Source: Gemmatimonadota bacterium
GTDB lineage: Bacteria; Gemmatimonadota; Gemmatimonadetes; Gemmatimonadales; Gemmatimonadaceae
NCBI GenBank assembly: GCA_947463135.1
Contig: CANHTA010000001.1
Location: 44,332-108,331 of the forward strand
Direction of reading: 5' to 3'
Length of the DNA: 64,000 bases
The position numbers and the translations under genes were made by a program. Shown one piece after another: positions 6,011-19,652 of the stretch; position 1 is the first letter of the stretch, and each line of letters opens with the position of its first letter. The notes under the pieces are model-generated. The model had not been told where the DNA came from. It ran no database searches and saw only the letters and a program-made list of their open reading frames with translations.

Positions 6011-6090
6011 GTGGGGACGTTGCCAGCCTTCGGCCTCGGGTGCAAGATCACCCCATGTTCGGCGTTTCCCTCCCGTCCTTGAGGCTGCCC

Positions 6091-8397
6091 ATGCCATCCG
6101 TGCCCCACCTCGTGTCCCCTCCCGCTCCGGTGCGCGTCGTCGCCGGCGGCGTGCTGATGCTTGTCTCCGCCTCGTCGCTCTGGGCTCAGGCAAAGCGCCC
6201 GATGGCCTGGGTTGACGGGCAGCGCCTTCGCTCGGTGTCGGGGGCGGCCCTCTCGCCTGATGGCGCGCAGCTGCTCTATGCGCTCACCACCCCCGACTGG
6301 AAGGAGGCCACTACGCAGAGTGACCTCTACATGGTGCGCACCGACCGTGGGCTCACGAGTACCCGGCAGCTCACCTTCACCAGAGACAAAAACGAATCGT
6401 CGCCGCGCTGGGCGCCCGCAGGTGGCTGGTTTGTGTTCTCCTCCAATCGTGAAGGGACGGCGGGTGATTCCAAAACGCAGCTGTTCCTCATGCGCCCGGA
6501 TGGTGGCGAAGCCCGTCGGATTACCAATGCGAAGGAGGGGGTAAGCACCTTTGCCTTTAGTAAAGACGGTCAATGGCTGGTGTATCGGAGTGGCAAGGCT
6601 AACGAAGAGCAGCTGTACGCCTTGGCCATGACGGCGCTCGATCGCGGCGCCCCGCTTGATTCCCTGACCCCCCTGCAACTCACCAAACATCCCACGGGCG
6701 TGGGGAGCTGGGAGCTCGCCCCGGATTCCCGTCGCCTGTACTTCATCACCGCAGACACCGTCGATGCCGACGAGAAAGCGCGCATGGAGAAGAAGTTCAC
6801 GGTCGCCGTGCGGAACGCCGAGACGTCGATCAACTCGCTGTGGATGGTCGATCTGTCGTCCGCGTTGCGTCCGACCACGCGGGTCACGCGCGACACGTCG
6901 CTGGCCGTCACGGCCTTCGTGATCGCGCCCGACAGCAAGTGGGTGGGCTTCAGCGCCGTGCCGAACGACCGCTACAAGCGCAACATCACCGAGCAGGGGA
7001 TCTACGCCGACCAGTTCCTCCTCGACACGCGCGACGGCAGCATCGAACGGCTCACAAAGAACGACGAGTCGGCGGAGTCGGGGTTGTCCTTCTCGCCCGA
7101 TTCGCGCACGATCGCCTTCTCGGCGTCCGACGACATGGTGGCGTACAACATGAAGAACCGGCGCGTGTATGTGCGCGCCACCGACGCGAAGGGCGCCGCC
7201 TTCCGGAAGATCGGGGATCTCGATGGGGACGTGAGTGCCGATTGGTGGTCGGCCGATGGCAAGACCATCTATTTCAACGAAGGCTTCAAGGCCACGCAGC
7301 AGCTGTTTGCACTCGATGTGGCGACGGGGAAGGTGAAGGCGGTCACCGAGGTGCAGGGCGTCATCTCGGTGACTCAGGACGAGACCACGAAGCGTCTGAT
7401 GGTGTCGTATCAGGATCCGACCACGCCGCCGTCGATGTACACCGTGGCGTCGCTGGCCGCGCTCGCGTCACGCGCGTCGTGGACGCAGCTCACGGACCCC
7501 AATCCGTGGGTGCGCGAGCAGATCGCGCTTGGCGAAGAGACCGAGGTCACGTGGACCTCGAAGGACGGCAAGAAGGTGGGCGGCGTGCTGCTCAAGCCGG
7601 TCGGCTATCAGCCGGGGAAAAAGTATCCGCTCATCGTGTCGATTCATGGCGGACCGGCGGCGGCCGACCTGCTCTCGTTCAACGGCGGCTACGGGGCGCA
7701 GGTGTACGCCGGACAGGGGTGGGCGGTGCTCATGCCGAATTACCGCGGCTCGACCAACTACGGCGAGGCCCACAAGAACGGCATCGTGGGCAACTATTTC
7801 GAGCCGGGTTACCAGGACATCATGACCGGCGTTGATGCGTTGATTGCTCAAGGTCTCGTCGATGAGACGAAGATGGGCGTCCTCGGCTGGAGCGCCGGTG
7901 GCCACTGGAGCAACTGGATTCTCACGCACACCGACCGCTTCAAGGGGATCTCAAGCGGCGCGGGTACGTCGAACTGGATCTCGATGTACGCGCAGTCCGA
8001 TGTGCAGCGGAACCGGCAGTACTATCTCGGCAACAAGCTCCCCTATGACGATTTTGACGCGTACTGGAAGCAGTCGCCAATTAAGTACATTCGCAACGCG
8101 AAGACGCCCACGATGATTCACGTGGTGGAGGGTGATCCGCGTGTGCCGAGCCCGCAGAGCGTTGAGCTGCATATGGGTCTCAAGCGCGTGGGGGTGCCCA
8201 CCGAGCTCTTCATGTACCCCGGGGCCTCGCACGGCATTCCCGACGCCCGCAACCGGTTGGTGAAGAGCACCGCCGAGATGGCGTGGATGAACTACTGGGT
8301 GCTGGGGAGCGGCACGAAGTTCTCGTGGCGCGAGGTGCTGGAGACGCTCGAGGACCCTAAGGCCGAGAAGAAGGTTGAGGTGAAGGGGCTGAACTAA
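6091..8397 (+). CDS. S9 prolyl oligopeptidase family (dipeptidyl/acylaminoacyl peptidase) with WD40-like propeller
   Basis: IHGGP, NYRGSTNYG, nucleophile GWSAGG, acid residue in GDPRVP, and catalytic His in SHG. Start uncertain (6040-6157). Confidence 0.92.
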   Translation: MPSVPHLVSPPAPVRVVAGGVLMLVSASSLWAQAKRPMAWVDGQRLRSVSGAALSPDGAQLLYALTTPDWKEATTQSDLYMVRTDRGLTSTRQLTFTRDKNESSPRWAPAGGWFVFSSNREGTAGDSKTQLFLMRPDGGEARRITNAKEGVSTFAFSKDGQWLVYRSGKANEEQLYALAMTALDRGAPLDSLTPLQLTKHPTGVGSWELAPDSRRLYFITADTVDADEKARMEKKFTVAVRNAETSINSLWMVDLSSALRPTTRVTRDTSLAVTAFVIAPDSKWVGFSAVPNDRYKRNITEQGIYADQFLLDTRDGSIERLTKNDESAESGLSFSPDSRTIAFSASDDMVAYNMKNRRVYVRATDAKGAAFRKIGDLDGDVSADWWSADGKTIYFNEGFKATQQLFALDVATGKVKAVTEVQGVISVTQDETTKRLMVSYQDPTTPPSMYTVASLAALASRASWTQLTDPNPWVREQIALGEETEVTWTSKDGKKVGGVLLKPVGYQPGKKYPLIVSIHGGPAAADLLSFNGGYGAQVYAGQGWAVLMPNYRGSTNYGEAHKNGIVGNYFEPGYQDIMTGVDALIAQGLVDETKMGVLGWSAGGHWSNWILTHTDRFKGISSGAGTSNWISMYAQSDVQRNRQYYLGNKLPYDDFDAYWKQSPIKYIRNAKTPTMIHVVEGDPRVPSPQSVELHMGLKRVGVPTELFMYPGASHGIPDARNRLVKSTAEMAWMNYWVLGSGTKFSWREVLETLEDPKAEKKVEVKGLN

Positions 8398-8406
8398 GCC
8401 CAAGCC

Positions 8407-9252
8407 TCAGGGACACCCCGTCGCCACGATCGGCGGCGGGCAGGGACTCCCGTCGGTGGCACACACCGCGGCCTGCATGACCAGCCGATCGGCGAATCGG
8501 GTAATCGGAACGCCGTCGTCGGGGCGACGCTCGAGGGTGGGCCACGCCGTCACGAGCGTGGCCATGAGACGCGCATGCTCCCGCGGCGCGTGCATGGGCG
8601 CGCTTTTCGCGGTGCGGCGTAGGGCGGCAAGGTCAAAGAGCAGCCACGCGTTTTCTTCGGTCACCTCGCCGATGGCGTGGGTGCTTCGCTCGTGCACGTC
8701 GCCTTCGTGCAGCCGCACCGCGATGGCGAGGGCGGCGTTCAAGCTGGCCATGGCCGCGGATTCCTGACCGGCGGCCACGTCCACCGCCGCCATGCCCTGC
8801 AGGAAGGTGATGCTGTCACGTGAAATGGTGCTGCCAACGGATGGCACGTCACGGTAGGCCGCCACGAGCACGCGGCGCGCGTCGGCCACGGCCTGTCGGG
8901 ACGCCAGCCACCGGACCAGCGCGTCGGCACTGGCTCGGTCCCCCGCGGGGGCGGCGGCCACCGCTTCGCGGAGAATCCGGGTGGCACTGTCGGCGCAGCC
9001 GCGCAGCGCCCACAGGTCGGCGCGCCCGCGCATGGTGGCCTGCTCGGTTGCCAAGTCACCGGCGGTACGCGCCGCGATACCGGCCTGTTCGAGCGTGCGG
9101 CGTGCGGAATCGACGAGGCCGCGAAGGGCGAGGGCGCGCCCCTCCCGCCACAGGCCAACCGCCGTAGCTGGCTGGGCCCCCAGCGTGGGCGCCACAGCAG
9201 CCAGCGAGAGCGCCGCCGCGGCGACAAGCGCGCGCAGCGGCCGCGTGGTCAT
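8407..9252 (-). CDS. hypothetical secreted helical (TPR-like) protein
   Basis: Signal peptide (MTTRPLRALVAAAALSLAAVAPTLGAQ) and Ala-rich helical repeats. Start overlaps the upstream stop (ATGA). Confidence 0.6.
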   Translation of the reverse strand: MTTRPLRALVAAAALSLAAVAPTLGAQPATAVGLWREGRALALRGLVDSARRTLEQAGIAARTAGDLATEQATMRGRADLWALRGCADSATRILREAVAAAPAGDRASADALVRWLASRQAVADARRVLVAAYRDVPSVGSTISRDSITFLQGMAAVDVAAGQESAAMASLNAALAIAVRLHEGDVHERSTHAIGEVTEENAWLLFDLAALRRTAKSAPMHAPREHARLMATLVTAWPTLERRPDDGVPITRFADRLVMQAAVCATDGSPCPPPIVATGCP

Positions 9253-9692
9253 CCGATCACCAGCCCCGCAACGGGGGCGGACGAGAGCAGGGCTTCTTGA
9301 GCGGCCATGAGGACGGAAGCGGGAAGAGGAGCACTACCGGCCCGTTTGGCGGCTTCGACGACCATCGAGAGCGCACGGGCCTGCGCCGCATAGGCTGCAA
9401 GAAGGGCACCACCGGCCCCTGGAGTGGCCACAATGTCGTGCGCGAGGCTGTCCAGATGGCGCACCAGCGCTCCGTCACGCGGCGCTCCGTCACGCGGCGC
9501 TCCTCCGGCGGCGTTCGCGGTGAGCGGGACTTCCCGGTCGTGACGGAAGTCCTGTTGGCGTGATTCCTGCTCCGGACTGAGGTGCCAATGCCCAGCACCG
9601 ACCGACGCCGACAGGGCTTCCTGCACTCGGTTGTTGCTCGACGCCAACGCCGCTAAGCGGCGCCGCGCGACCTGCGATGACTCAAATCCCAC
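9249..9692 (-). CDS. hypothetical protein
   Basis: GGAG lies 7 nt before GTG 9692, and the stop overlaps the next ATG. No family recognised. Confidence 0.5.
   Translation of the reverse strand: MGFESSQVARRRLAALASSNNRVQEALSASVGAGHWHLSPEQESRQQDFRHDREVPLTANAAGGAPRDGAPRDGALVRHLDSLAHDIVATPGAGGALLAAYAAQARALSMVVEAAKRAGSAPLPASVLMAAQEALLSSAPVAGLVIG
9467..9503. repeat. 15-bp tandem repeat (2.5 copies) encoding GAPRD-GAPRD-GA
   Basis: gcgctccgtcacgcg at 9467-9481 and 9482-9496, with a partial copy at 9497-9503. Confidence 0.9.
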
Positions 9693-9753
9693 GCGAATTC
9701 TCCGGAAATTGCCGACTGACAGGGGTTTACGTGGGGTTTTGCCGCGTAGGCCC

Positions 9754-9782
9754 TTGACAGGAACGGAATTGATACCTAAATG
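9754..9782 (+). promoter_or_regulatory. putative sigma70 promoter
   Basis: Perfect TTGACA at 9754-9759 and an imperfect -10 (CTAAAT/TAAATG) 16-17 nt downstream, in a divergent intergenic region. Confidence 0.45.
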
Positions 9783-10037
9783 CGACAGAGCGGGTGATGC
9801 GGGGCAGGCGGGGGTAACCGCATGTTGCATCGGTGTTTACTTGCTGCTGCTTCGTGGTGCGGCGCGGTTTCGTCGCCGGACCGGCGCTACTTACGTCGTG
9901 GGCGCCACGCGAAACGGTCTGGATCGATCACGCGGTCGTCGCCGGCGTATTGGTCGATCAGCGGTCGGAGGCCTGTACCGACACCACGTCGGGTGTCGCA
10001 CAGGGTACGGTTCGAGCGCTCCCCTGAAGGAGGCTGG

Positions 10038-10979
10038 ATGCACGTCCTCACGCCGGTAGCTGGAAGTGACCTTGTCGCGAGGGAGCTGGCGGAGCTCGCC
10101 AGAACCACCCTCGACGATCATTGGGCCGTCGCCGCTATTCCCATAGAGCGGCGGACCCTGCTGCTGGAGCGGGCCGACGCAGCCGCTCTGCGCCCCGGGG
10201 AGGGGCTCGGCGAACCGATTGCCGATGGACTGGCGCTGCTTGGTACCGCGTACGAATTGGCGGCCCTCGGCCAACTGGAGGCTGCGCTGCAAGCGGCGCC
10301 CAGTGCCGGTCGCGATCTCGCCCAGGCGGTGCTGACGCTCGGGGCTGCCCGAGCGTTCAAATGCGCGGCCGCACTCCGACCCCCCACTGAGGAAGGGGAA
10401 TCGGCGGTCAAATGGGCACTCAAACTGGGGGCCTTGGCGCTCGTCTCGCGGCAAACCGAGGCGTACGTACAGTGGTGGGTCGTGCGTCGGCATGTGGCCG
10501 ATACCGTCCATCACACGGCGCGACGCGTGGAGCAGGAGCCGTGGGAGAGCTATGCGCGTGGCACCCTGTGGATGGCGTGGCTTGGGCTGGTCGGCGCCCC
10601 CATCGCGGTGGCCACCGATCACGCCGCCGCGGAGCTGTCGATGCTCACCGCCACGCGGAATCGCCTGGCGGCGTTCCGTGAGCGTCGCGCCGAGCATGAG
10701 CTCCCGGCTGACGGCCCGCTGCTCAACACCGCGGCCTTGCGGGCCCGGATGATGGAGTTTGCCATCCGCCATCTGGCCGACGCCACTGAGCTCCTCACCG
10801 TGGCCGTGTTGCGGCGCACGCTGCCCGATGTCTCGGGAGAGTTCAAATTGCACATGAGTGCGGCGCGCTCCGCCATGGCGGGGGATCATGGACACGATAT
10901 GCTGTTGGCGTGGTTACAAGCGGCCGGCGTTACGCTGGCAGGCGGCGTGACCGCCCAGCTCGAACTTCCAGGATTCTAG
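10038..10979 (+). CDS. hypothetical all-helical protein ending in QLELPGF
   Basis: AGGAGG at 10028-10033, ATG at 10038, 313 aa. No catalytic motif recognised. Confidence 0.75.
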   Translation: MHVLTPVAGSDLVARELAELARTTLDDHWAVAAIPIERRTLLLERADAAALRPGEGLGEPIADGLALLGTAYELAALGQLEAALQAAPSAGRDLAQAVLTLGAARAFKCAAALRPPTEEGESAVKWALKLGALALVSRQTEAYVQWWVVRRHVADTVHHTARRVEQEPWESYARGTLWMAWLGLVGAPIAVATDHAAAELSMLTATRNRLAAFRERRAEHELPADGPLLNTAALRARMMEFAIRHLADATELLTVAVLRRTLPDVSGEFKLHMSAARSAMAGDHGHDMLLAWLQAAGVTLAGGVTAQLELPGF

Positions 10980-11325
10980 TCCGGCCGCCTTTGTTGGCGT
11001 CCGTGTAAGACCGCCACACCCGGTACACGCGTCGTCCGCTGCTGCCAATAGGAAACGCAATGCGGCCGGCGCCCAGGGGCAGGATGTCGGCCATCATGGC
11101 GCCGATGGCCACTCGCGTCTCCTCGTCGGAGGCCGGTGCGGGGGCCTCCGGTTCAATGCGATACCACATGGCGCCGGCCGCCCCATCCACACAGACCAGA
11201 TATTGGTCATCGTGGCTCCAGAACGCGGTCATCCGATCAGCATGCTCGCCGGTGTGGATTGGCAAGGATGTGAGGGGGGCCGGTTCGATGTTCCCGATGG
11301 GGGCACTGCAGGCGACGACATGCAT
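10930..11325 (-). CDS. hypothetical protein
   Basis: Open frame with plausible composition and ATG 11325 preceded by GGA. The 3' end overlaps the convergent gene by 50 nt, so the end is uncertain. Confidence 0.45.
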   Translation of the reverse strand: MHVVACSAPIGNIEPAPLTSLPIHTGEHADRMTAFWSHDDQYLVCVDGAAGAMWYRIEPEAPAPASDEETRVAIGAMMADILPLGAGRIAFPIGSSGRRVYRVWRSYTDANKGGRTRILEVRAGRSRRLPA

Positions 11326-11461
11326 GAGCAAATTCCACGGAGTTACAGAAACGTGAGCACCGATGAAATGTCCTCGGGTTCGATCATCGGTGGGCGGTGA
11401 TGTTATGACGATCGATGCGCCCGCGCAATATGACTGGAAGGCACTAAGTTGTTGATATCGT

Positions 11462-11597
11462 TGTGGATAGACGTTGATAGACGTGTGGAAAACTCGCTAA
11501 GTGCTTCCACGGGGGCGAGATCGCGCGTTACGGGGTGTGGAAAACCAGGGCTGTGACCCCGTCCGTTTTTGCGGTGCCGTCCGGCTCTTTTTCCACA
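11462..11597. other. cluster of DnaA boxes (oriC-like or DnaA titration site)
   Basis: TGTGGATAG 11462-11470, TGTGGAAAA 11484-11492, TGTGGAAAA 11536-11544 and TTTTCCACA 11589-11597. Three fit TTWTNCACA perfectly and one has a single mismatch. They lie in a ~450-bp gene-free, locally AT-richer region. Confidence 0.65.
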
Positions 11598-11780
11598 TAG
11601 CCGGATATCACAAAGTTGATGTTTTGTTGCCTGCTCACACGCTTCGGCAGCCGAGGTCGCCGTGCGCCGTGGGACCTCATCGGTTTTCCGGGTGTCACGG
11701 GCGTGGCTATGGCGGAGAGCGGCGTACCGCCGCATTGTCTAGTATTGGTTGGCCCTCTTTTCTGGAGCACTCACGTGTCG

Positions 11781-12701
11781 ATGGACCCACGAATTGGTTT
11801 ACTGGTTGGCCGCGAATGGTCGTTTCCGCCGGCCTTTCTCGAGGCGGTGGCGCGCCGGCAGTCCGGTGTGACCGCGGACTACATCACGCTCGATGCGACT
11901 CGAATGGGGCAGGAGGTCCCCTATTCGCTGATCATCGACCGGATTTCGCATGAGGTGGGGTTTTACCGCACCTTCCTCAAGCACGCGACCCGCATGGGGA
12001 CCACGGTGGTGAACAACCCGTTCATGTGGTCGGCCGACGACAAATTCTATGACGCCACCGTGGCGATCCAGAACGGAGTCGCCCACCCCAAAACCATGGT
12101 CCTGCCGAACCGGGACTACATCCCCGGGATCTCGCACACCGAATCGCTGCGGAACCTGGCCTATCCCCTCGATTGGAAGAGCGTCGCCGACTACATCGGA
12201 TTCCCGTGCGTGCTCAAGGATGCGCACGGTGGCGGCTGGCGTGATGTGTATATCTGCGACTCTATGGACGAGTTGCTTCACCACTACAACAACAGTGGCC
12301 TGCTCACGATGGTGGTGCAGGAGTTCATCCACTGGGATGCGTACGTCCGCTGCATGGCCCTCGGCCGGACGGAGGTGCTCCCCATGCCCTACGATCCGAA
12401 GCAGCGTCGCTACATTCCCGATCCGGGGTATCTCGACGCCGCGCTCGAAGCGCGCTGTGTGCAGGACTCGCTCACGCTGTGCAAGGCGCTCGGCTACGAT
12501 ATGAATACGGTGGAGTTTGCCGTGAAGGACGGGGTCCCCTATGCCATTGACTTCATGAATCCCGCGCCGGACATGGACATCCATTCCCTCACCCCGACCT
12601 ACTTCGAGTGGGTGGTGGAGCACATGGCCGATTTGGCCATCAGGCTGGCCACCGCGCCGCGGCCAGCACAGCACCCGCACACGGTGCCGATCGGGGAATA
12701 G
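11781..12701 (+). CDS. RimK/glutathione-synthetase-like ATP-grasp ligase
   Basis: GGAG upstream of ATG 11781. Motifs ADDKF, FPCVLKDAHGGGWRDVY, VVQEFI and AIDFMNPAPD. Confidence 0.85.
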   Translation: MDPRIGLLVGREWSFPPAFLEAVARRQSGVTADYITLDATRMGQEVPYSLIIDRISHEVGFYRTFLKHATRMGTTVVNNPFMWSADDKFYDATVAIQNGVAHPKTMVLPNRDYIPGISHTESLRNLAYPLDWKSVADYIGFPCVLKDAHGGGWRDVYICDSMDELLHHYNNSGLLTMVVQEFIHWDAYVRCMALGRTEVLPMPYDPKQRRYIPDPGYLDAALEARCVQDSLTLCKALGYDMNTVEFAVKDGVPYAIDFMNPAPDMDIHSLTPTYFEWVVEHMADLAIRLATAPRPAQHPHTVPIGE

Positions 12702-12720
12702 CGGGGAATACGCGGGGAAC
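12692..12720. repeat. three tandem CGGGGAA(TA) direct repeats at ~10-11 bp spacing
   Basis: cggggaata 12692-12700, cggggaata 12702-12710 and cggggaac 12713-12720. Confidence 0.85.
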
Positions 12721-12803
12721 GGCGAACGCCGCGGCAGGGTGGGGGGCTCAGGGGCGCTGTACACACCGTACCGCCGCGCCGTCACAAATTTTACTACGTT
12801 TTT

Positions 12804-14156
12804 ATGTCCACATCGGCAATCGCGCGCTACCACGAGACGCTGCACGACGACGGTATCGCGCAGGCCAGCGCCGAAGTGCTCGACCGACAGTTGCGGCACG
12901 ATGGGCTCTTCTTCGGCGAGCGTCCGTTGTGCAGTGTGCTGCGGCCGCGCTTCCTGACCCTCGGGCAGTACCGGCAGTTGTCCACGGCCAGCGCCCTGGT
13001 TGGGTCCGCCTTCGAGAAGGTGCGCGTGGCGGCCATGGCGGACTCGGCCTTACGGACGCAGTTCGGGCTGACCGCCTGGGAAGAGGAGCTCATCCATGTG
13101 GACCCGGGCTTCGCGGCCGCGAGTCCAACTTCACGGCTGGATGCGTTTTTTGCGGACGGGAACGGCGCCCTCAAGTTTACGGAGTACAACGCGGAGACGC
13201 CGGCGGGCGCGGCCTACAACGACGCCCTCTCGCGTGCCTTTCTGGCCTTGCCCGCCATGCATGCATTCAGCCGGACCCATGTGGCGCTGCCACTCCCGGC
13301 GGCGCCGTCGGTGGTGCATGCCTTGCTTCAGGCCTACTTCCAATGGCGTGGCGTACGTGAAGCGCCCACCGTCGTCATTCTCGATTGGAAGGAGGTCCCC
13401 ACCGCCAGCGAGTTTGTGCTCTTCGCCCGCGAGTTCGCGGCCCTTGGCATTGACGCGTTCATCGGGGATCCCCGGGACGCCGAGTATGCGAACGGCCGCC
13501 TGACCATCGGGGGGAAGCACGTGACCATGATTTATAAGCGCGTGCTCATTGATGAGCTCGTTACCCGGGAGGGGCTGAATTCGCCGGTGGTGCGCGCTGT
13601 GAAAGATGGTGCGGTGTGTATGGTGAATCCCTTCCGCTGTAAGGTGTTACATAAGAAGGCCTCACTTGCCGTGTTAAGTGATGAACGGCAGCAGGCATTG
13701 CTCTCGCCCGATGAGCAGGCGGCGGTGGCGGCCCACGTGCCGTGGACTCGGGTGGTTGAGGAGCGGCGCACGCAGTATGGCGCCAGCGAGGTCGATCTGC
13801 TGGAATTCACCGCCGCCAACCGCGCCACGCTCGTGCTCAAGCCCAACGACGAGTACGGCGGGAAAGGGATCGTGCTGGGGTGGACGGTGACCGATTCCGA
13901 ATGGGAAGAGGCCATGCGGACAGCCCTTGCTGAGCCGTATATCGTGCAGGAGCGGGTGGAGATCCCTGCTGAAGCGTGGCCGGCCTGGACCGACGGCGCA
14001 CTTCATGTGGGTGAACGCATGCTCGACACCGCGCCGTTTCTCACGGATGGGGTCACCATGTCCGGGTGCTTGACCCGTATTGCGACCGATCCCCTGCTGA
14101 ATGTCACCGCCGGTGGTGGCTCCAACGTCCCAACTTTTCTGGTCGAACCACGCTGA
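12804..14156 (+). CDS. circularly permuted ATP-grasp ligase (glutathionylspermidine-synthase-like / CP-ATP-grasp)
   Basis: Motifs SRLDAFF...LKFTEYNAETPAG, MIYKRVL, VLKPNDEYGGKGIVLG, YIVQERV and LNVTAGGG. Confidence 0.8.
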   Translation: MSTSAIARYHETLHDDGIAQASAEVLDRQLRHDGLFFGERPLCSVLRPRFLTLGQYRQLSTASALVGSAFEKVRVAAMADSALRTQFGLTAWEEELIHVDPGFAAASPTSRLDAFFADGNGALKFTEYNAETPAGAAYNDALSRAFLALPAMHAFSRTHVALPLPAAPSVVHALLQAYFQWRGVREAPTVVILDWKEVPTASEFVLFAREFAALGIDAFIGDPRDAEYANGRLTIGGKHVTMIYKRVLIDELVTREGLNSPVVRAVKDGAVCMVNPFRCKVLHKKASLAVLSDERQQALLSPDEQAAVAAHVPWTRVVEERRTQYGASEVDLLEFTAANRATLVLKPNDEYGGKGIVLGWTVTDSEWEEAMRTALAEPYIVQERVEIPAEAWPAWTDGALHVGERMLDTAPFLTDGVTMSGCLTRIATDPLLNVTAGGGSNVPTFLVEPR

Positions 14157-14953
14157 TGTCTTCATATACGCGCCCGGTCATTGGGCTCACCACGCAAACG
14201 CTCCATTCCATTGATGGCATCCCACCGGGGTTGCCCTCGTCGTGGGTGATGAACCAACGCTACTTTCTGGCGGCTACCATGGTGGGGGCCGTGCCGTGGA
14301 TGATCCCCCTCCTTGACGACGATCTCCTCACGCTCCGCGAGATCTACGAACGGCTGGACGGCCTGCTCATTCCCGGCGGTGTGGATATTAACCCCAGCGA
14401 ATACGGCGAAGCCGTACGGCCGGAGTGCGGCAATCTCGATCCGGCCCGCGACCGGGTGGAACTGCAACTGGTGCGGTGGGCCATCGAAGACGGCAAGCCC
14501 GTGCTTGGACTGTGCCGCGGCCTGCAGGTGATCAACGTGGCCTCGGGCGGTACGCTCTGGCAGGACCTGGCATCACAAAATCCTGCTTTCCACAAGCATG
14601 ACTTTTTTCCAACCGCCGGCTTCCAGCGCGATCACCTCGCGCACGAAGTCGAGATCGCGTCCAACACAAAGTTGTCGCGACTGCTTGAATCCACACGGTC
14701 GCCGGTCAACAGCATGCACCATCAGGGCATCAAGCAACTCGGAGCGCGGCTGGTCGCATCGGCCATCGCCGACGATGGGCTCATTGAGGCCGTGGAGGGT
14801 GACGGGGAGGCGTTTCTGGTGGGCGTCCAATGGCACCCTGAAGTGTTTGAGATGGCGGATCCACATTCCCGGCATCTGTTCGGCGGCTTCATTCGGGCCG
14901 CGATGAGCTGGTCCACCGCGAACAAAAATGCCCGTGTCAGGGTGGGGGAGTAA
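14156..14953 (+). CDS. peptidase C26 / gamma-glutamyl-gamma-aminobutyrate hydrolase family (class I glutamine amidotransferase)
   Basis: Motifs LLIPGGVD, GLCRGLQVINV (nucleophilic Cys), NSMHHQG and VQWHPE. ATG overlaps the upstream TGA. Confidence 0.9.
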   Translation: MSSYTRPVIGLTTQTLHSIDGIPPGLPSSWVMNQRYFLAATMVGAVPWMIPLLDDDLLTLREIYERLDGLLIPGGVDINPSEYGEAVRPECGNLDPARDRVELQLVRWAIEDGKPVLGLCRGLQVINVASGGTLWQDLASQNPAFHKHDFFPTAGFQRDHLAHEVEIASNTKLSRLLESTRSPVNSMHHQGIKQLGARLVASAIADDGLIEAVEGDGEAFLVGVQWHPEVFEMADPHSRHLFGGFIRAAMSWSTANKNARVRVGE

Positions 14954-16174
14954 ATGCGCGCGCCAAGCCTGACCGTTGGTATTGAGGAAGAGTACCAGAT
15001 CATCGACCCCATCACCCGTGACCTCACCCCCGGCTTTGATGCCTTGGTGTCCAGCAATGACGCGCAGCTCGCGGACGTCAAAGCGGAACTGCATCAGTGT
15101 CAGGTGGAGATCGGCACCAAAGTGTGCGGGTCCATATCGGAACTGCGCGCGGAGCTGGTCCAGTTACGCCGACTGGTCATTCAGGCCGCCGGTCAGCATG
15201 GACTCACCATTGCCTCCGCCGGAACGCACCCCTTCTCGAATTGGATGAATCAGGAGATGACGCCGAAGGAGCGATACCTCGGCGTCAAAGCGGAGCTGCA
15301 GGATCTGGCGCATCGCTTGCTCATTTTCGGCACCCATGTGCATGTCGGCATTGAAGATCCCGAGTTCCGGATCGACTGCCTCAATGCCGCCCGGTACATC
15401 CTGCCGCACATTCTGTGTCTGTCCACCTCGTCACCCTTCTGGTTTGGGCGGAACACCGGCCTGCATTCGTATCGCAGCATTGTGTTCAAGAATTTCCCGC
15501 GCACCGGGGTGCCGCGCATCCTGAACGGATGGAATGACTACGCCGACCTCGTCGACACGCTGGTGCGAACCCGCAGCATTCCCGATGGGTCGAAGATCTG
15601 GTGGGATGTGCGGCCACACCACATCTACCCCACGCTGGAGTTTCGCGCCTGCGACGTGAACACCAAGGTGGATGAGGCGGTCTGTATTGCGGCCATCCTG
15701 CAAGCCGTGGTGGCCAAGATGTGGAAGCTCCGTCGCGATAACATGACCTTTCGCGTCTACGCGCAGGATCTCATCGAAGAGAACAAGTGGCGCGCGGTGC
15801 GCTGGGGCCTCGGCGGCAAGCTGATTGACTTCGGCAAAAAGGAAGAGCTGCCGGCGCCGGTGCTCATTCGCGAGTTAGTGGAGTGGTTCCTCGACGACGT
15901 GCTCGACGAACTCGGGACGCGAAAGGAGGTGGAATACGCCTTCACGATTCTCGATCACGGATCCAGCGCGCAGCGTCAACTGGCCACCTACGCGCGCACC
16001 GGGGACCTGCGGGCCGTGGTTGATCAGCTCATTCGCGAGACCGCAGAAGGGGTGTGCGAGCCAACCCTGGGGCCTCCGCTGGAAAGCACCAGCTCCGTGG
16101 GCGCGGATGTGCCGGGGAGCATGGCGACCGAGCGTGGGACGTTGTCGGCCGTTCGGGGGCAGTCAATCCCCTAA
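14954..16174 (+). CDS. carboxylate-amine ligase, GCS2/YbdK (glutamate--cysteine ligase 2) family
   Basis: Motifs [36 protein letters not shown] and TLEFRACD. Confidence 0.9.
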
Positions 16175-16179
16175 ACCAC

Positions 16180-16202
16180 GGCGGCCGTGCCTGGCGGCCG
16201 CC
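16180..16202 (+). terminator. GC-rich hairpin after the ligase operon (possible terminator)
   Basis: ggcggccg (16180-16187) pairs with cggccgcc (16195-16202). No clear U-tract. Confidence 0.35.
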
Positions 16203-16332
16203 CGGACCACCGTATCGGCACAAATACGGATGCAGTTCCGCCGCACCCCTCGATACTCTGCATGCTTCTGACTCGCTCCGTTTACGGGCGATGGTCGTTT
16301 CATGACGAGTCTCTTTGCGGCGGTTATACGCT

Positions 16333-17418
16333 ATGACGTTGTTCTCGAAGTCGATGTGCCTGCGGTCGTTGTTGCCGCTTGGTGCCGCGGTGCTCTTGGC
16401 GGCCTGTGAGGGAGAGGCGACGGCTACCGGTCCGGATGCCGGTGTGCCCGAGGCGCCGATCAATCAAGTCGTCACGTTTGGTCCGCTCAACGCGAGCAGT
16501 CCGGACACGCTCGTGTTTTTCAGCTTTGCGAAGGGCACGCTGGTGCCGCGCAGCGGAGACTGGGATCTCGCGTTTCGTCGATATGAAGTGCGACTCAATT
16601 CGCCAGCTATCGGTGGTGCAACCAGCAAAAACGTGCTTGGCGTGGCGCTCGAGAACAACAAGACTGCCACGGACGCACAGGTGCTGGCATTCACCACGGC
16701 GAACACGCTCAGCGAGTTCGATGCTATCAGGGCTGGCCTAATCCCCATCCCCGCCGACGACCGGTTCCAGACCGATCGGCTCACGGAAAACCGACAGGGC
16801 TATCTCAACTTGAGCGGTATTCCCACCGCCAACGCGGCGAATTACTGGAAGCTGCGTTTGGCTAACGGGAGTTTTGCGCTCTTCCGCGCTACGCGCATCA
16901 AGTTTACCCCTGCTTTTGCCGTTGACACGCTGTATCTCGAGTCTCGTCTGCAATCTGGCAGCACCCTGGGGGCGGTGCAGACGCTCGCGATTGCGCCGGC
17001 TGGCGCTGTCCGGCAAATCAGTTTTGCCACCAATGCGGTGGTAACGGGCGGTGGCTGCAACTGGGACCTCGAGTTTAACCCGGCGGCCAACCAACTCTCA
17101 CTCGTGCCGAACGTGGCGTGCAATGCCGGTACGTATCCGGGGCCAACGTCACCCACCTTTGCCAACGCCACGGTGGCCAGCGATGCCCCGCAGTTCGCCA
17201 CCTTCTTGTCCACCTTGGTTGGACCGATCCCGAACTCTGTGCTCGATAAGGCGGCACCGTTCCGGTACAACTTGCAGGGGAATGATCGACTCCACCCGGC
17301 GTTCAATACCTACTTGGTGAAGTCCGGCACGCGCATCTTCAAGCTGCAGATTACCGATTACTACAGCAACACCGGCGTCGCCGGGTTTCCCACCATTCGC
17401 TACGCCCGCATTCAATGA
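16333..17418 (+). CDS. HmuY-like lipoprotein (two HmuY-type units)
   Basis: Lipobox VLLAAC. FFSF...DWDLAFRRY and a second NWDLEFNP. C-terminal FKLQITDYY...GFPTIRYARI. Confidence 0.75.
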   Translation: MTLFSKSMCLRSLLPLGAAVLLAACEGEATATGPDAGVPEAPINQVVTFGPLNASSPDTLVFFSFAKGTLVPRSGDWDLAFRRYEVRLNSPAIGGATSKNVLGVALENNKTATDAQVLAFTTANTLSEFDAIRAGLIPIPADDRFQTDRLTENRQGYLNLSGIPTANAANYWKLRLANGSFALFRATRIKFTPAFAVDTLYLESRLQSGSTLGAVQTLAIAPAGAVRQISFATNAVVTGGGCNWDLEFNPAANQLSLVPNVACNAGTYPGPTSPTFANATVASDAPQFATFLSTLVGPIPNSVLDKAAPFRYNLQGNDRLHPAFNTYLVKSGTRIFKLQITDYYSNTGVAGFPTIRYARIQ

Positions 17419-19652
17419 CCGGCGTTCGGCGCCGCCCGGGGCGGCGTGGCGGGAGCGCGTGTCTCGCTTCCCGCCTTCGACAGGCGCTGCTGTTGCTGGT
17501 GATGGCGCGGAGCGCGGCGTCGGCGCAGTCGGCGGCGCTACCGCAGGGGACCGCAGCGGTAACAGCACAGATAACCGTCGCCGGCACGGTCCTCGCGCAA
17601 TCCGACGGTACGCCGGTGATGTTGGCCGAGCTCCGTGTCGGGCGCACTGGTGTCCGTGCTCGCACGGATGCCGCTGGTGCCTTTCGCCTGGTGGCGGCGG
17701 TGGGCGACTCGCTTCAGGTGCGTGCGCTCGGCTTTGCTGAGCGGCGTCTGGTTGTTACCGGTCCCACCTTGCGCATCACCTTGGTTCCGCTCGCTACGGT
17801 CCTCCCGGTGTTCACCACCACCATGGGACAGCGCGTCATTCGAGCGAGTGAGTCGCCACGGAGTGTCACGGTAATCAGCCGGAAGGAATTGGAGGCCGTC
17901 GCGGCGGTGTCGGCGAATCAAATACTCCGTCAGCTGCCCGGATTGCAGGAGCTTCCTGCGCCTCCATCAAAAACGTCTATCTCCATTCGCGGCTTTGACG
18001 ATTCGCGGGTGTTGGTGCTGGTGGATGGCGAACCGGTGGCAGGGGCACTGATGGAAAGTCGCGACATTGGACGACTGAGCACGATTGCCACCGAGCGTAT
18101 CGAAGTGACCAAAGGGCCCTCAAGCGTGGAGTTCGGCAGCGATGCCTTGGGGGGCGTCATCAATCTGGTACAGGCGGCGCCCACCACGCGGCTGACCATC
18201 GATGCGGTAGCTCGCGACGGTGGTCTCGGGCGTCAGGAGTCGTCGGTGGGGGTGAGTCAAACGGTGGGGAAGCTTGGCTATCGCGTGAATGGCGGTTGGC
18301 GTCAATCCGACCGCCTCACCGGCTACAATGCGGTGGGGTCCACTTTCAACCGCATCTATGATGTGCGCAGTGATGTCCGGTATGCGCTGCCCAACCAGTG
18401 GACGCTGCGGTTGGATATGCAGGGATCACAGGAGCGTCAGCGCTTTCCCGTGAATACCGCCTTCAACGGCTTCATTGATAACCGGGGCGGGCAAGGGTTT
18501 GCCGAAGCCCGCGGGCCGTTGGGGGGAGGGAATCTGCGGGCGCGCGCCTTTGTGCAGCGCTTTGTGTATCAGTACCGGCAGTCGCGTGGCTTGTTGCCCA
18601 TTCAGGGCTCGGCGGATTCTCTGGAGCAGCGTGAGCGCCAGGAGCGGTTTCTGCTGTCGTACACGCGCGTGGTGGGGAGGCATGCGCTTGACGTGGGCGC
18701 TCAGCGGTCGCATCGCACGCTGGTGGCCCCCCGGAAAGTGACTGGGGATAGTGCGGCGGAGCAGGTCACCGAGGTATTTGCGCGTGACGCGTGGACGGTC
18801 GGGCCCCTGCTGATGACCGCTGGGGCGCGGCACACCAGCAGTACACTCTGGGGAAGTAGTGCCAATCCGTCGATTGGTGTGGCGTGGCAAGCCTCGTCGG
18901 GCGTGCGCGTGCGGAGCAATGTGGCCCGTGGATTTCGGGCCCCAGGCTTCAAAGAAATCCGGTACACGTTCACGAATCCAGCCGGGGGCTACACGCTGTC
19001 CGGGAATCCGGATCTGCTGCCTGAGAGCTCGTGGAGCACAAGCCTGGGTGGTACATGGGCGCCGAGCACGTCGCTCTCCATCGATGTCGAGGCATACCGC
19101 AACGACGTGTCGGGGCTGGTCGACTGGCGCTATGAAGGGGACAACGCGGCGGGGTTTCAGTCCTATCGCTATGTGAATGTGGCGCGGGCTCGTACGCAGG
19201 GTGTGGAACTCAACGCGCAGGGACGTGTTGGGGCCACCGAGCTCACTGTGGGGTATGATTTTCTTCGCGCGCGCGACCTCAACGCGGGACTTCCGCTAAG
19301 CCGCCGTGCAACGCATACGGCACGCGTGCGAGCGGCGCACGAGTGGCGGGTCCGTCACGGGCTCTCGGGCGATGCGTCGATACGGTATACCGGCAACGCG
19401 CCGTTGATTGGCATACCGAGCGGGGCACCGATTACGGGGCCATTCTCCACCGAGAGCGGCATTATCGGCCGTCAGGGGGCGTTGCTGTCGGTCGATACCC
19501 AACTGCGGTTGGCCATCACACGCGAGCTCGAAGCCTCGGGTGGTGTGAACAATCTGCTGAATCAGCAGCCCGAACTGTGGACCCCGGCCTTTGCCCGCCA
19601 GGTGTACGTGGGACTTCGGTGGCGCTGGAGCGCCTCGTCGTCAACGCCGTAA
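17415..19652 (+). CDS. TonB-dependent outer-membrane receptor (HmuR-like, with N-terminal carboxypeptidase-regulatory-like domain)
   Basis: Plug motifs VLVLVDGEP and IERIEVTKGPSSVEFGSDALGGVINL. Also GFRAPGFKE, NPDLLPE and GVNNLLN. Coupled to the HmuY-like gene. Confidence 0.9.
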   Translation: MTGVRRRPGRRGGSACLASRLRQALLLLVMARSAASAQSAALPQGTAAVTAQITVAGTVLAQSDGTPVMLAELRVGRTGVRARTDAAGAFRLVAAVGDSLQVRALGFAERRLVVTGPTLRITLVPLATVLPVFTTTMGQRVIRASESPRSVTVISRKELEAVAAVSANQILRQLPGLQELPAPPSKTSISIRGFDDSRVLVLVDGEPVAGALMESRDIGRLSTIATERIEVTKGPSSVEFGSDALGGVINLVQAAPTTRLTIDAVARDGGLGRQESSVGVSQTVGKLGYRVNGGWRQSDRLTGYNAVGSTFNRIYDVRSDVRYALPNQWTLRLDMQGSQERQRFPVNTAFNGFIDNRGGQGFAEARGPLGGGNLRARAFVQRFVYQYRQSRGLLPIQGSADSLEQRERQERFLLSYTRVVGRHALDVGAQRSHRTLVAPRKVTGDSAAEQVTEVFARDAWTVGPLLMTAGARHTSSTLWGSSANPSIGVAWQASSGVRVRSNVARGFRAPGFKEIRYTFTNPAGGYTLSGNPDLLPESSWSTSLGGTWAPSTSLSIDVEAYRNDVSGLVDWRYEGDNAAGFQSYRYVNVARARTQGVELNAQGRVGATELTVGYDFLRARDLNAGLPLSRRATHTARVRAAHEWRVRHGLSGDASIRYTGNAPLIGIPSGAPITGPFSTESGIIGRQGALLSVDTQLRLAITRELEASGGVNNLLNQQPELWTPAFARQVYVGLRWRWSASSSTP

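Follow-up and report, generated by a model that had tools for sequence, protein, structure and literature searches.

The four co-oriented genes g1-g4 probably, although with considerable reserve, represent the Gemmatimonas-genus version of a conserved cytoplasmic multi-ligase pathway that makes a small peptide-like molecule. Their arrangement is far beyond chance: dozens of genomes of several phyla have these genes side by side and in one orientation. Several distinct ligases encoded together in an operon are an established sign of peptide ligations carried out in succession (PMC4431377). The window, i.e. the whole analyzed stretch of 64 kb, originates from a freshwater lake Gemmatimonas; all positions given below refer to it:

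11462-11597, no strand assigned: candidate regulatory stretch within the g1 5' leader, with four DnaA-box-like 9-mers
11781-12701, plus strand: g1 (306 aa), RimK/Ddl-like classical ATP-grasp protein without Pfam model
12702-12803, plus strand: g1-g2 spacer (102 nt)
12804-14156, plus strand: g2 (450 aa), circularly permuted ATP-grasp protein, CP_ATPgrasp_2 (PF14403)
14156-14953, plus strand: g3 (265 aa), Peptidase C26/class-I GATase-type gamma-glutamyl amide hydrolase
14954-16174, plus strand: g4 (406 aa), YbdK-type GCS2 carboxylate-amine ligase
16180-16202, plus strand: G+C hairpin of 9 bp, six bases past the g4 stop codon, without T tract

The four open reading frames that the sequence-only reading had placed at 11781-16174 are thus all present on the plus strand. 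The translational abutment claimed for g2-g3-g4 can be read directly from the sequence: g2 stop (14154-14156) and g3 start (14156) share one nucleotide (TGATG), and the g3 stop (14951-14953) is immediately followed by the g4 start at 14954 (TAAATG). The g1-g2 spacer, whose equivalent in G. aurantiaca measures 3 nt, revealed no unusual RNA structure (z +1.23). Among the flanking ORFs (6040-19652), Pfam scans identified an S9 peptidase, HmuY, a TonB receptor and unannotatable ORFs; alpha-E, transglutaminase, Ntn-peptidase and puuA/B/C genes were not found beside the cluster in these scans, in agreement with their previously claimed absence. By-eye reading of the four N-termini of g1-g4 gave no signal peptide.

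RNA contigs of lake metatranscriptomes (unstranded, with possible DNA carry-over) cover g1-g4 and bridge the g2/g3 and g3/g4 junctions; in these sparse data no contig spans 12743-12837 in the g1-g2 spacer region, and the proposed co-transcription is therefore upheld for g2-g3-g4 and putative for g1-g2. The DnaA-box-like 9-mers of the g1 leader (CTATCCACA and three copies of TTTTCCACA) include all three exact matches to TTWTCCACA in the 64-kb window; boxes and spacing (22/52/56 nt) are kept in 11 Gemmatimonas-genus loci, the intervening sequence is not, and no similar cluster was present elsewhere in approximately 1 Mb of related loci. RNA contig coverage is near zero across 11412-11615, and the leader is regarded as a candidate regulatory region for the operon. 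The hairpin behind g4 is a possible terminator (RNA fold of 16165-16260: −33.3 kcal/mol, z −1.62), for which a pattern scanner requiring a T run made no call; synteny with G. aurantiaca ends immediately downstream of it.

The census comprised 81 related loci from four phyla (Gemmatimonadota, Chloroflexota, Planctomycetota and one Rubricoccaceae genome). In all 67 informative loci g1 was located directly upstream of g2, and outside the Gemmatimonas genus an alpha/beta-hydrolase gene, missing from the window locus, was positioned just upstream of g1 nearly everywhere. GCS2 (g4) occurred in 42/43 Gemmatimonadota, approximately 1/3 of the Chloroflexota and 3/4 Planctomycetota loci; C26 (g3) was encoded in 35/39 Gemmatimonadota and 0/21 Chloroflexota loci, was seen among the 81 loci only in Gemmatimonadota and the Rubricoccaceae genome, and was accompanied by g4 in every locus except one (L064). 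Tight g2-g3 coupling is confined to the Gemmatimonas genus, outside of which g3 and g4 are not consistently adjacent (gaps of up to ~1.4 kb or an intervening gene). The invariant core consists of g1 and g2, usually with the alpha/beta-hydrolase, whereas GCS2 and, to a greater degree, C26 are accessory genes restricted to certain lineages; the window operon is therefore a lineage-specific version of a broader multi-ligase module. The genes do form a conserved unit across phyla as expected, but the four together are not the natural unit they had been taken for. Between phyla, the identity values (57-67% for g1, 52-60% for g2, 59-70% for g4) are high, which suggests that the metabolite is a conserved one and the cluster not of the fast-evolving antibiotic kind; a transporter or precursor gene conserved with the cluster was not found in the related loci.

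Peptide-synthesis neighborhoods around type-2 circularly permuted ATP-grasps were reportedly predicted by Iyer, Abhiman, Burroughs & Aravind in 2009 (Mol Biosyst 5:1636), as prediction alone; such ATP-grasps are reported to accompany a GCS2-like COOH-NH2 ligase and hydrolases of alpha/beta-fold and amidohydrolase type. The principle in general is borne out by PMC4431377. PF14403, the family of g2, is presumably the ATP-grasp family of these neighborhoods. The gene neighborhoods of the census fit this picture and extend it: A second ATP-grasp (g1), which has no Pfam model, accompanies g2 obligatorily, GCS2 is optional, and the Gemmatimonas genus has replaced the alpha/beta-hydrolase position by moving C26 beside g2.

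The g1 start at ATG 11781 is backed by 25 homologues (an upstream TTG at 11616 is disfavored); the protein has no Pfam match, and its homologues are annotated as "hypothetical" without Pfam domain. Weak matches were obtained with the NCBIfam models of the RimK family (E 8e-9; 35 bits, cutoff 143) and LysX, PDB profile matches with biotin carboxylase domains and Ddl, and the AF2 model (pLDDT 86) had RimK (TM 0.66), Ddl and ArgX/LysX as top Foldseek matches. The catalytic Lys/Glu/Asp/Asn positions of the RimK/LysX/ArgX/Ddl ATP-grasps are present (K146 in LKDAHGGGW, Q180-E181, E245, D257/N260), and 92 columns are invariant in the alignment across phyla. However, identity to these closest structural relatives (RimK, LysX/ArgX, D-Ala-D-Ala ligase) is only ~15-19%, the g1 scores are well under every family cutoff, and unlike in the RimK/LysX systems no S6- or LysW-like partner gene is located near g1. 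"RimK-like" thus describes weak sequence similarity and predicted fold, not membership of the RimK family.

The g2 protein passes the CP_ATPgrasp_2 cutoff (36.4 versus 32 bits), and its PDB profile matches comprise 3n6x (E 9e-16), Cp1B (2e-9), YgiC/YjfC and GspS. Its AF2 model (pLDDT 96) was best matched by human, plant and yeast glutathione synthetase (TM ~0.7) and likewise by homoglutathione synthetase, followed by the proteins of the profile search. The fold is that of eukaryotic-type glutathione/homoglutathione synthetase, GspS and YgiC/YjfC (TM 0.6-0.72). Catalytic motifs of the glutathione synthetase/GspS group, namely E-x-N, Lys and Gly-Gly, are invariant among the homologues (E127-x-N129, K285, K346, G352-G353, R425); yet identity amounts to just 11-18%, and none of their sequence models is matched. 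Relatives of g2 are carried by at least 589 species-level genomes; one relative (P0244) is fused to an ANL adenylating enzyme and another (P0176) to GCS2. Among the relatives, YgiC/YjfC are peptide-spermidine ligases and Cp1B couples epoxysuccinate with an L-amino acid (PMC12568646); in all characterized ones, a small acid or peptide is ligated with either an amino acid or an amine. GspS likewise couples a ligase with a hydrolase undoing its reaction, although this is a CHAP amidase instead of C26 or an alpha/beta-hydrolase. The two-step logic of glutathione synthesis is mimicked by a GCS2 ligase beside a ligase of glutathione-synthetase fold, but the additional obligatory ATP-grasp g1 is absent from the glutathione synthetase and GspS systems. 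Cp1B (PDB 9cjn, related to g2 by profile and fold) belongs to the fungal E-64 pathway, in which several ligases assemble a three-part pseudopeptide step by step and independently of an NRPS (PMC12568646), and the ANL fusion of the g2 relative echoes the pairing of Cp1B with Cp1D. In contrast to Cp1B, which is accompanied by an epoxidase and by an ANL ligase, g2 is partnered by ATP-grasp and GCS2 proteins, and the locus has no oxygenase or warhead gene.

The g3 protein belongs to Peptidase_C26 (Pfam E 2.7e-60), with Lin1909 (6e-41), PuuD (2e-31) and three chains deposited as "probable glutamine amidotransferase" among its PDB matches and the conserved Cys-His-Glu motifs in place (C120 in CRG, H227 and E229 in WHPE). 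For g4 (Pfam GCS2, E 3.4e-54; PDB matches to the YbdK structures 1tt4 and 1r8g), the NCBIfam "carboxylate-amine ligase" model NF010039 was the only one whose cutoff was passed (528 versus 371 bits). The GCS2 family includes EgtA and archaeal GshA; E. coli YbdK is just a weak gamma-glutamylcysteine ligase, and YbdK-type enzymes are not known to have an established physiological substrate. As had been read from the sequence, the three ligases do represent three different amide-forming families; their catalytic motifs are in place.

That these genes encode a divergent known pathway, either glutathione synthesis (GCS2 as GshA, g1/g2 as GshB) or Puu/Spu-type amine catabolism, is very unlikely. Several NCBIfam models of the GCS2 family are named gamma-glutamylcysteine ligase and the fold of g2 is that of eukaryotic glutathione synthetase, but g4 remained under the cutoff of all glutamate-cysteine ligase equivalogs, g1 and g2 match no glutathione-synthetase sequence model, and glutathione takes two ligases rather than three plus hydrolases. 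In addition, genome comparison predicts bacillithiol synthesis in Gemmatimonadota/Gemmatimonadetes (PMC6282198), which also weakens the "alternative glutathione-like thiol" for this phylum. The Puu/Spu systems (PuuA and PuuD, SpuA/B) share with g4/g3 the pairing of an ATP-dependent ligase forming a gamma-glutamyl amide and a C26 hydrolase removing the glutamate, and g3 is homologous to PuuD; however, it is far below the PuuD equivalog cutoff (124 versus 266 bits), the Puu/Spu ligase is glutamine-synthetase-like instead of GCS2, neither a PuuA nor counterparts of the oxidase and aldehyde dehydrogenase steps are encoded in the flanks, and the two extra ATP-grasp ligases argue for synthesis rather than catabolism. 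The locus also did not qualify as an Anbu/alpha-E system or as a RiPP locus; as claimed before, none of the known pathways tested explains the cluster.

More probable, though still rather unlikely, is a role of glutamate as protecting group: g4 would gamma-glutamylate an amine precursor, g1/g2 would extend the masked molecule and g3 would release the mature product, following the logic of butirosin or ergothioneine biosynthesis and making C26 a biosynthetic step instead of a recycling one. The near-exclusive occurrence of g3 alongside g4, its translational coupling to g2 and g4 in the window and the precedents for gamma-glutamyl protection and removal (butirosin deprotection, cited in PMC4431377) would fit, but many Chloroflexota and Planctomycetota loci contain g4 without g3 or neither, so that an obligatory protect/deprotect pair is missing there, and the inconsistent g3-g4 adjacency outside the genus speaks against it as well. 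Since C26-type proteins share the class-I amidotransferase fold, g3 could also be a glutaminase subunit that feeds ammonia from glutamine to a ligase for carboxylate amidation, in a MurT/GatD-like manner and with an amide-capped peptide as outcome. In line with this, g3 is also matched by the Pfam model for class-I GATase (E 1.7e-12) and weakly by several amidotransferase NCBIfam models, and the 1-nt g2/g3 overlap would suit matched protein amounts; as by far the best g3 matches are standalone gamma-glutamyl-amide hydrolases, and as g3 outside the Gemmatimonas genus is distant after g4 or absent, we consider it quite unlikely. Similarly low is the probability of protein tagging, in which g1 would attach amino acids at the C-terminus or at a side chain of some protein encoded elsewhere, g2/g4 would extend this tag and g3 remove it: RimK, ArgX and LysX, which are structurally closest to g1, all work on protein C-termini, reversible tagging typically involves a ligase paired with a hydrolase (e.g. 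PafA/Dop; PMC7947786, PMC3511204), and the very high g1 conservation would suit a macromolecular partner. Against this, no conserved target or carrier gene was detected in or beside the cluster in the 81 loci, where the intergenic gaps are too short, the characterized g2 relatives are all small-molecule enzymes, and the modest RimK score is equaled by Ddl, a small-molecule ligase.

The preferred multi-ligase pathway, all chemical steps of which are deduced from family membership, would join carboxylates to amines in ATP-dependent steps, one after another, with no ribosome, tRNA or NRPS involved. The invariant pair of g1 (RimK/Ddl/LysX-like) and g2 (glutathione-synthetase/glutathionylspermidine-synthetase/Cp1B type) would build the scaffold, each converting a carboxylate to an acyl phosphate and joining it to an amine; two amide bonds, and hence a three-part molecule, would result. 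A third amide, gamma-glutamyl by family precedent, would be added or supplied by g4, and g3 is predicted to cut the same type of bond, g4/g3 thereby acting as a make/break pair that would control how much of the gamma-glutamylated form is present, or allow its recycling. Many loci lack g3 and g4, whose role may therefore lie in a side branch instead of the synthesis of the main product. In most other lineages the alpha/beta-hydrolase upstream of g1 would be the hydrolytic partner, whereas the Gemmatimonas genus appears to have lost it from the locus and to have moved g3 directly behind g2. The general idea of the sequence-only reading, assembly by several ligases without the ribosome and with a hydrolase that reverses it, remains the best one; the products it named (gamma-glutamyl oligopeptide, thiol or protein tag) are not supported, and the GCS2/C26 pairing implies only one gamma-glutamyl-type bond. 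With its three dissimilar ATP-driven ligases for amide bonds and its gamma-glutamyl hydrolase, the locus is a local form of a module that is conserved in four bacterial phyla.

The four reading frames that the sequence-only reading had placed on the + strand were all recovered, with the following extents; a hairpin after g4 is listed last:

11781-12701, + strand, g1, RimK/Ddl-like ATP-grasp protein (306 aa)
12804-14156, + strand, g2, circularly permuted (CP) ATP-grasp protein (450 aa)
14156-14953, + strand, g3, C26 hydrolase (265 aa)
14954-16174, + strand, g4, GCS2/YbdK-type ligase (406 aa)
16180-16202, hairpin (9-bp G+C)

The start of g1 was set at 11781 and not at that of a longer ORF from 11616; the homologues all start with M-x-x-[KR]-[IV]-G. 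The gaps inside the cluster measure 0-102 nt, and the close packing claimed for the last three genes held to the base: g2 and g3 overlap in TGATG (base 14156 is common to the g2 stop and the g3 start), and g3 and g4 abut in TAAATG (g3 stop 14951-14953, g4 start 14954). The G+C content of 14001-16000 (g3-g4) is 0.61, slightly below the window average of about 0.65.

The conservation of this arrangement was followed by scanning one genome for each species, and at least 589 genomes contained a relative of g2; gene context was compared in the 80 best of these loci (52-86% identical to g2) and the window. The scan used a 13-sequence alignment, a 53-sequence one being too diverse, and the 80 loci are accordingly limited to those sharing 52% identity or more with g2 (at E ≤ 0.001 the wider g2 family has 3,622 representative clusters, at E ≤ 1e-30 it has 547; the contigs of two distant representatives were too short for gene context). 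Presence or absence was counted by tblastn with the window proteins, for g3 and g4 at the locus only; a naive ORF caller gave many spurious antisense ORFs (65% G+C). The 80 loci belong to Gemmatimonadota (including Longimicrobia), Chloroflexota (Anaerolineae, Ardenticatenaceae, Promineifilaceae, Ktedonobacteraceae, Chloroflexia), Planctomycetota (Gemmata, Fimbriiglobus) and one Rubricoccaceae genome. Directly upstream of g2 and co-oriented with it, g1 was present in each of the 67 loci that were long enough. The ligase g4 followed g2 in 42/43 Gemmatimonadota, about a third of Chloroflexota and 3/4 Planctomycetota loci, and the hydrolase g3 was found in 35/39 Gemmatimonadota loci and the Rubricoccaceae locus, in none of 21 Chloroflexota and none of three Planctomycetota loci; all g3-bearing loci except one (L064) also possess g4. 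The tightly coupled order g2-g3-g4 is restricted to the Gemmatimonas-genus clade (L002-L019) and is replaced elsewhere by g2-g4-g3. A further gene, X4, encoding an alpha/beta-hydrolase of about 240 aa with a weak PF00756 match and conserved GxSxG (GASFG), Asp and His motifs, lies directly upstream of g1 in about 46 loci (e.g. L026:6096-6827): 20/21 Chloroflexota, 3/3 Planctomycetota, the Rubricoccaceae locus and 22/35 Gemmatimonadota loci, the latter being the non-Gemmatimonas ones. Neither the Gemmatimonas-genus loci nor any part of the window contains X4. A second PF00756 esterase occurs in 16/30 Gemmatimonadota loci, often upstream of X4; an L-amino-acid-ligase-type ATP-grasp recurs in eight informative loci and an S9 peptidase in five. 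The invariant part of this multi-ligase module is thus g1 plus g2. Since g4, g3 and X4 vary by lineage, the proposed four-gene operon holds as a unit conserved together in the genus Gemmatimonas (G. aurantiaca matches it in gene content and order, its g1 and g2 being 3 nt apart), yet it is the form that a larger module takes in one lineage, and not the whole unit. Overlong g2 ORFs of 750-790 aa that resembled g1-g2 fusions were discarded as start-codon extension artefacts.

Contigs from four lake metatranscriptomes cover g1-g4, with the reservation that these contigs are unstranded and that DNA carry-over is possible. The implied co-transcription is supported for the distal genes by single RNA contigs across the g2/g3 (13988-14531, 13936-14171) and g3/g4 junctions (14843-15106, 14709-15032), but no contig in these sparse data bridges g1 and g2 (12743-12837). 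Upstream of g1, contig coverage falls nearly to zero between 11412 and 11615; scans for sigma-70 promoters and for + strand terminators returned no match. Downstream of g4, the window carries a HmuY/TonB-receptor pair in contrast to a PDDEXK (PDDEXK_3) gene in G. aurantiaca, and the unit therefore ends at g4. Farther downstream, genes for GH57, glycogen synthase, phosphorylase and aspartokinase-homoserine dehydrogenase are in partial synteny with G. aurantiaca, as is the S9 peptidase upstream of the cluster. The HmuY-like lipoprotein and TonB-dependent receptor (16315-19652, overlapping stop/start), which separate the operon from the glycogen genes, probably serve haem or metal uptake; several other Gemmatimonas loci show homologous neighbours (c15, c11) after g4 in a rough ORF clustering. 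Two S9-family (prolyl-oligopeptidase-type) peptidases are encoded in the window (6040-8397 and about 37723-39936), and S9 peptidases recur beside the ligase cluster in some Chloroflexota loci; as the window copies are separated from the cluster by 3.4 kb and by more than 20 kb, a link between them and it would be tentative. Divergent from g1, on the minus strand at about 10930-11232, lies a gene for a conserved hypothetical protein, about 100 aa long (MTAFWSHDDQY...RSRRLPA) and without a Pfam domain, which G. aurantiaca shares; its metatranscriptome contig depth is at least that of the operon.

The g1 protein has no Pfam match and lies far below the curated cutoff of the RimK family TIGR00768 (E 8e-9, 35.2 versus 143.4 bits), with weak NCBIfam similarity to LysX. 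Its AlphaFold model (pLDDT 86) displays a classical ATP-grasp fold, with RimK 5zct as the best Foldseek match (TM 0.66), besides D-Ala-D-Ala ligases and ArgX/LysX; the ATP/Mg-binding residues K146, E181, E245, D257 and N260 vary little or not at all. The family retains 72% mean column identity across phyla, including an invariant LKDAHGGGW loop, QEF, E245 and D257-F-M-N260, and its members are labelled "hypothetical protein" without a Pfam domain. No rpsF gene was found near g1. The g2 protein passes the CP_ATPgrasp_2 cutoff marginally (PF14403, 36.4 versus 32 bits) and remains under that of CP_ATPgrasp_1 (20.3 versus 23.1 bits). According to its AF2 model (pLDDT 96), g2 would adopt the circularly permuted ATP-grasp fold of glutathione synthetase and GspS: 2hgs, 3kal, 3n6x, 9cjn, 7uk6 and 2io8 were matched by Foldseek at TM 0.63-0.72 (probability 1.00), the top folds being the human, soybean, potato and yeast glutathione/homoglutathione synthetases (TM about 0.7), followed by 3n6x, Cp1B, YjfC/YgiC, GspS and trypanothione synthetase. 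PDB profile matches (3n6x, E 9e-16; Cp1B, 2e-9; YgiC; GspS) agree with these. The family-invariant residues E127-x-N129, K285, K346, G352-G353 (in LKPNDEYGG) and R425 resemble the Mg/ATP residues of glutathione synthetase. The protein is 98% identical to a metagenomic protein, 86% to "Gemmatimonas sp." proteins and 75% to that of G. aurantiaca T-27, and the window DNA is nearly identical to lake and freshwater metagenome sequence. Two further relatives have fused architectures: an ANL-type AMP-binding enzyme joined to a g2-like domain (P0244, 990 aa), and a partial g2-like region with a GCS2 domain (P0176, 692 aa; possibly an assembly artefact). In all characterised relatives of g2, the ligation is between a small acid or peptide on one side and an amino acid or amine on the other (PMC12568646).

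Among the accessory proteins, g3 matches Peptidase_C26 over the whole model (E 2.7e-60), with a Cys-His-Glu triad of C120 (CRG), H227 and E229 (WHPE) whose motifs align to 3fij; its PDB matches include Lin1909 and PuuD. The g4 protein matches GCS2 (PF04107, E 3.4e-54) and YbdK (PDB 1r8g, E 5e-41), and exceeds the cutoffs of the "carboxylate-amine ligase" model NF010039 (527.7 versus 371 bits) and of TIGR02050 (270 versus 176 bits). That the cluster is a known pathway in disguise, i.e. plain glutathione synthesis or putrescine catabolism, is contradicted on defining tests in each case. The score of g3 is far below the PuuD equivalog cutoff (124.2 versus 266 bits), the puuA/B/C partners are missing, and no GS-like ligase, oxidase or aldehyde dehydrogenase is encoded in 6040-19652. 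For a GshA plus GshB (or eukaryotic glutathione synthetase) pathway the number of ligases does not fit; g4 remains below the glutamate-cysteine ligase cutoffs (NF010043, 342.6 versus 409; NF010042, 235.9 versus 427; TIGR02048, 56 versus 249 bits), and no Pfam or NCBIfam model of glutathione synthetase is matched by g1 or g2 at E ≤ 0.01, the likeness of g2 being one of fold only. The asserted absence of alpha-E, transglutaminase, Ntn-hydrolase and Puu genes was likewise confirmed among the flanking ORFs. The CP-ATP-grasp type 1/alpha-E/transglutaminase/Anbu system was rejected, as the flanking genes, in the window and in G. aurantiaca alike, encode neither an alpha-E nor a transglutaminase-like protein (with or without Anbu). 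A graspetide or other RiPP ATP-grasp system was dismissed for want of an adjacent precursor peptide gene: within the limited small-ORF search none was found beside the ATP-grasp genes, the 450 nt upstream are conserved at short DNA boxes only and keep no reading frame, and no small ORF recurs across the 81 loci, in agreement with what the sequence-only reading had maintained.

We infer that a small, peptide-like cytoplasmic molecule is assembled step by step, without ribosome or NRPS, because three unrelated ATP-dependent carboxylate-amine ligases stay together, because carrier protein, precursor peptide, transporter and signal peptide are all lacking, and because conservation between phyla is at housekeeping level. 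The linkage of several distinct ligases elsewhere carries the same recognised meaning (PMC4431377). Being invariant, g1 and g2 would build a scaffold with two amide bonds; since both g4 and g3 are accessory, with g3 dependent on g4, g4 would add or supply a gamma-glutamyl-type amide that g3 would cleave, analogous to PuuA/PuuD or to the synthetase and amidase of GspS. In other lineages, X4 is probably the customary hydrolytic partner. The same pairing of g4 and g3 would also be expected if glutamate were a transient protecting group and g3 the biosynthetic deprotection step; alternatively, g3 might be a glutaminase supplying ammonia to one of the ligases. C-terminal tagging of a protein is a further rival, in whose favor the affinity of g1 to RimK/LysX can be cited.

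As to the product of the stepwise assembly, the suggestion of an alternative thiol loses weight in Gemmatimonadota, for which bacillithiol synthesis is predicted; for Planctomycetes no thiol is documented or predicted (PMC6282198). A candidate thiol route would combine the GCS2 ligase, the glutathione-synthetase-fold ligase and the third ligase. That g1, g2 and GCS2 make an uncharacterised cytoplasmic metabolite widespread in Gemmatimonadota, Chloroflexota and Planctomycetota in the form of a gamma-glutamyl-cysteine-based thiol or thiol-amine conjugate, perhaps the missing redox buffer of Planctomycetes, is a candidate reading that we regard as improbable. In Pseudomonas putida, a distant CP-ATP-grasp operon (PP_2685-2688) is induced on nitrate versus ammonium (PMC8050072), and in marine metagenomes the abundances of CP_ATPgrasp_1, alpha-E and transglutaminase domains track those of urea-metabolism domains (PMC3597751); by analogy, a nitrogen-related role of the g1-g4 system may be considered, as a lead and not as evidence.

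The leader of g1 contains a cluster of DnaA-box-like 9-mers (11462-11597), one CTATCCACA and three TTTTCCACA, at the following positions:

11462-11470, - strand, DnaA-like box
11484-11492, - strand, DnaA-like box
11536-11544, - strand, DnaA-like box
11589-11597, + strand, DnaA-like box

The exact motif TTWTCCACA has three matches in the 64 kb, all within 114 bp of this leader. The boxes and their spacing (22/52/56 nt, with TCACAA 16 nt further on) are kept in 11 Gemmatimonas-genus loci, whereas the sequence between them is not conserved; about 1 Mb of related loci contained no similar cluster at any other place. Because GC skew is positive on either side and, in two complete chromosomes, the locus is situated at about 1.5-1.6 Mb, the boxes are not oriC-like; they may constitute a DnaA-regulated promoter or a DnaA-titrating site. 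An RNA structure or riboswitch formed by the inverted repeats TGTGGAAA / TTTCCACA upstream of g1 was rejected, as motif, fixed spacing and orientation fit DnaA boxes; an Rfam search of the leader gave no match. Within 11396-11470, additional short blocks are kept across Gemmatimonas loci (GATGTTATGACGATC, CGCAATACG, CTAAGTTGTTGACA), the CTAAGTTGTTGACA block containing a TTGACA-like hexamer in most of them.

A class of type-2 CP ATP-grasp proteins with a GCS2 ligase and hydrolases was reportedly predicted by Iyer et al. in 2009. Its definition reportedly includes an operonic GCS2-type ligase and hydrolases, and GCS2, C26, alpha/beta-hydrolases and S9 peptidase likewise recur beside g2 among the 81 loci; the window cluster is a member of this predicted class with a variant accessory set and thus not a new kind. 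No experimental work on such a system was found in the literature searched. New in the present work are the definition of a core of two genes, the recognition of the unnamed g1 family, the distribution of GCS2, C26 and alpha/beta-hydrolases among lineages, the fold assignments and the in-situ expression. The problem is thereby made amenable to experiment: it is reduced to a two-enzyme core with optional GCS2/C26 tailoring, g1 is placed in an ATP-grasp family without a Pfam model, and G. aurantiaca T-27 is available as a cultured, sequenced carrier of the operon. Stand-alone ATP-grasp and GCS2 ligases are also wanted as amide-bond biocatalysts (PMC12568646). If the proposed assembly is true, at least several hundred species from four phyla, including abundant freshwater and soil Gemmatimonadota and Chloroflexota, would spend three ATP-dependent ligations on an uncharacterised small molecule.
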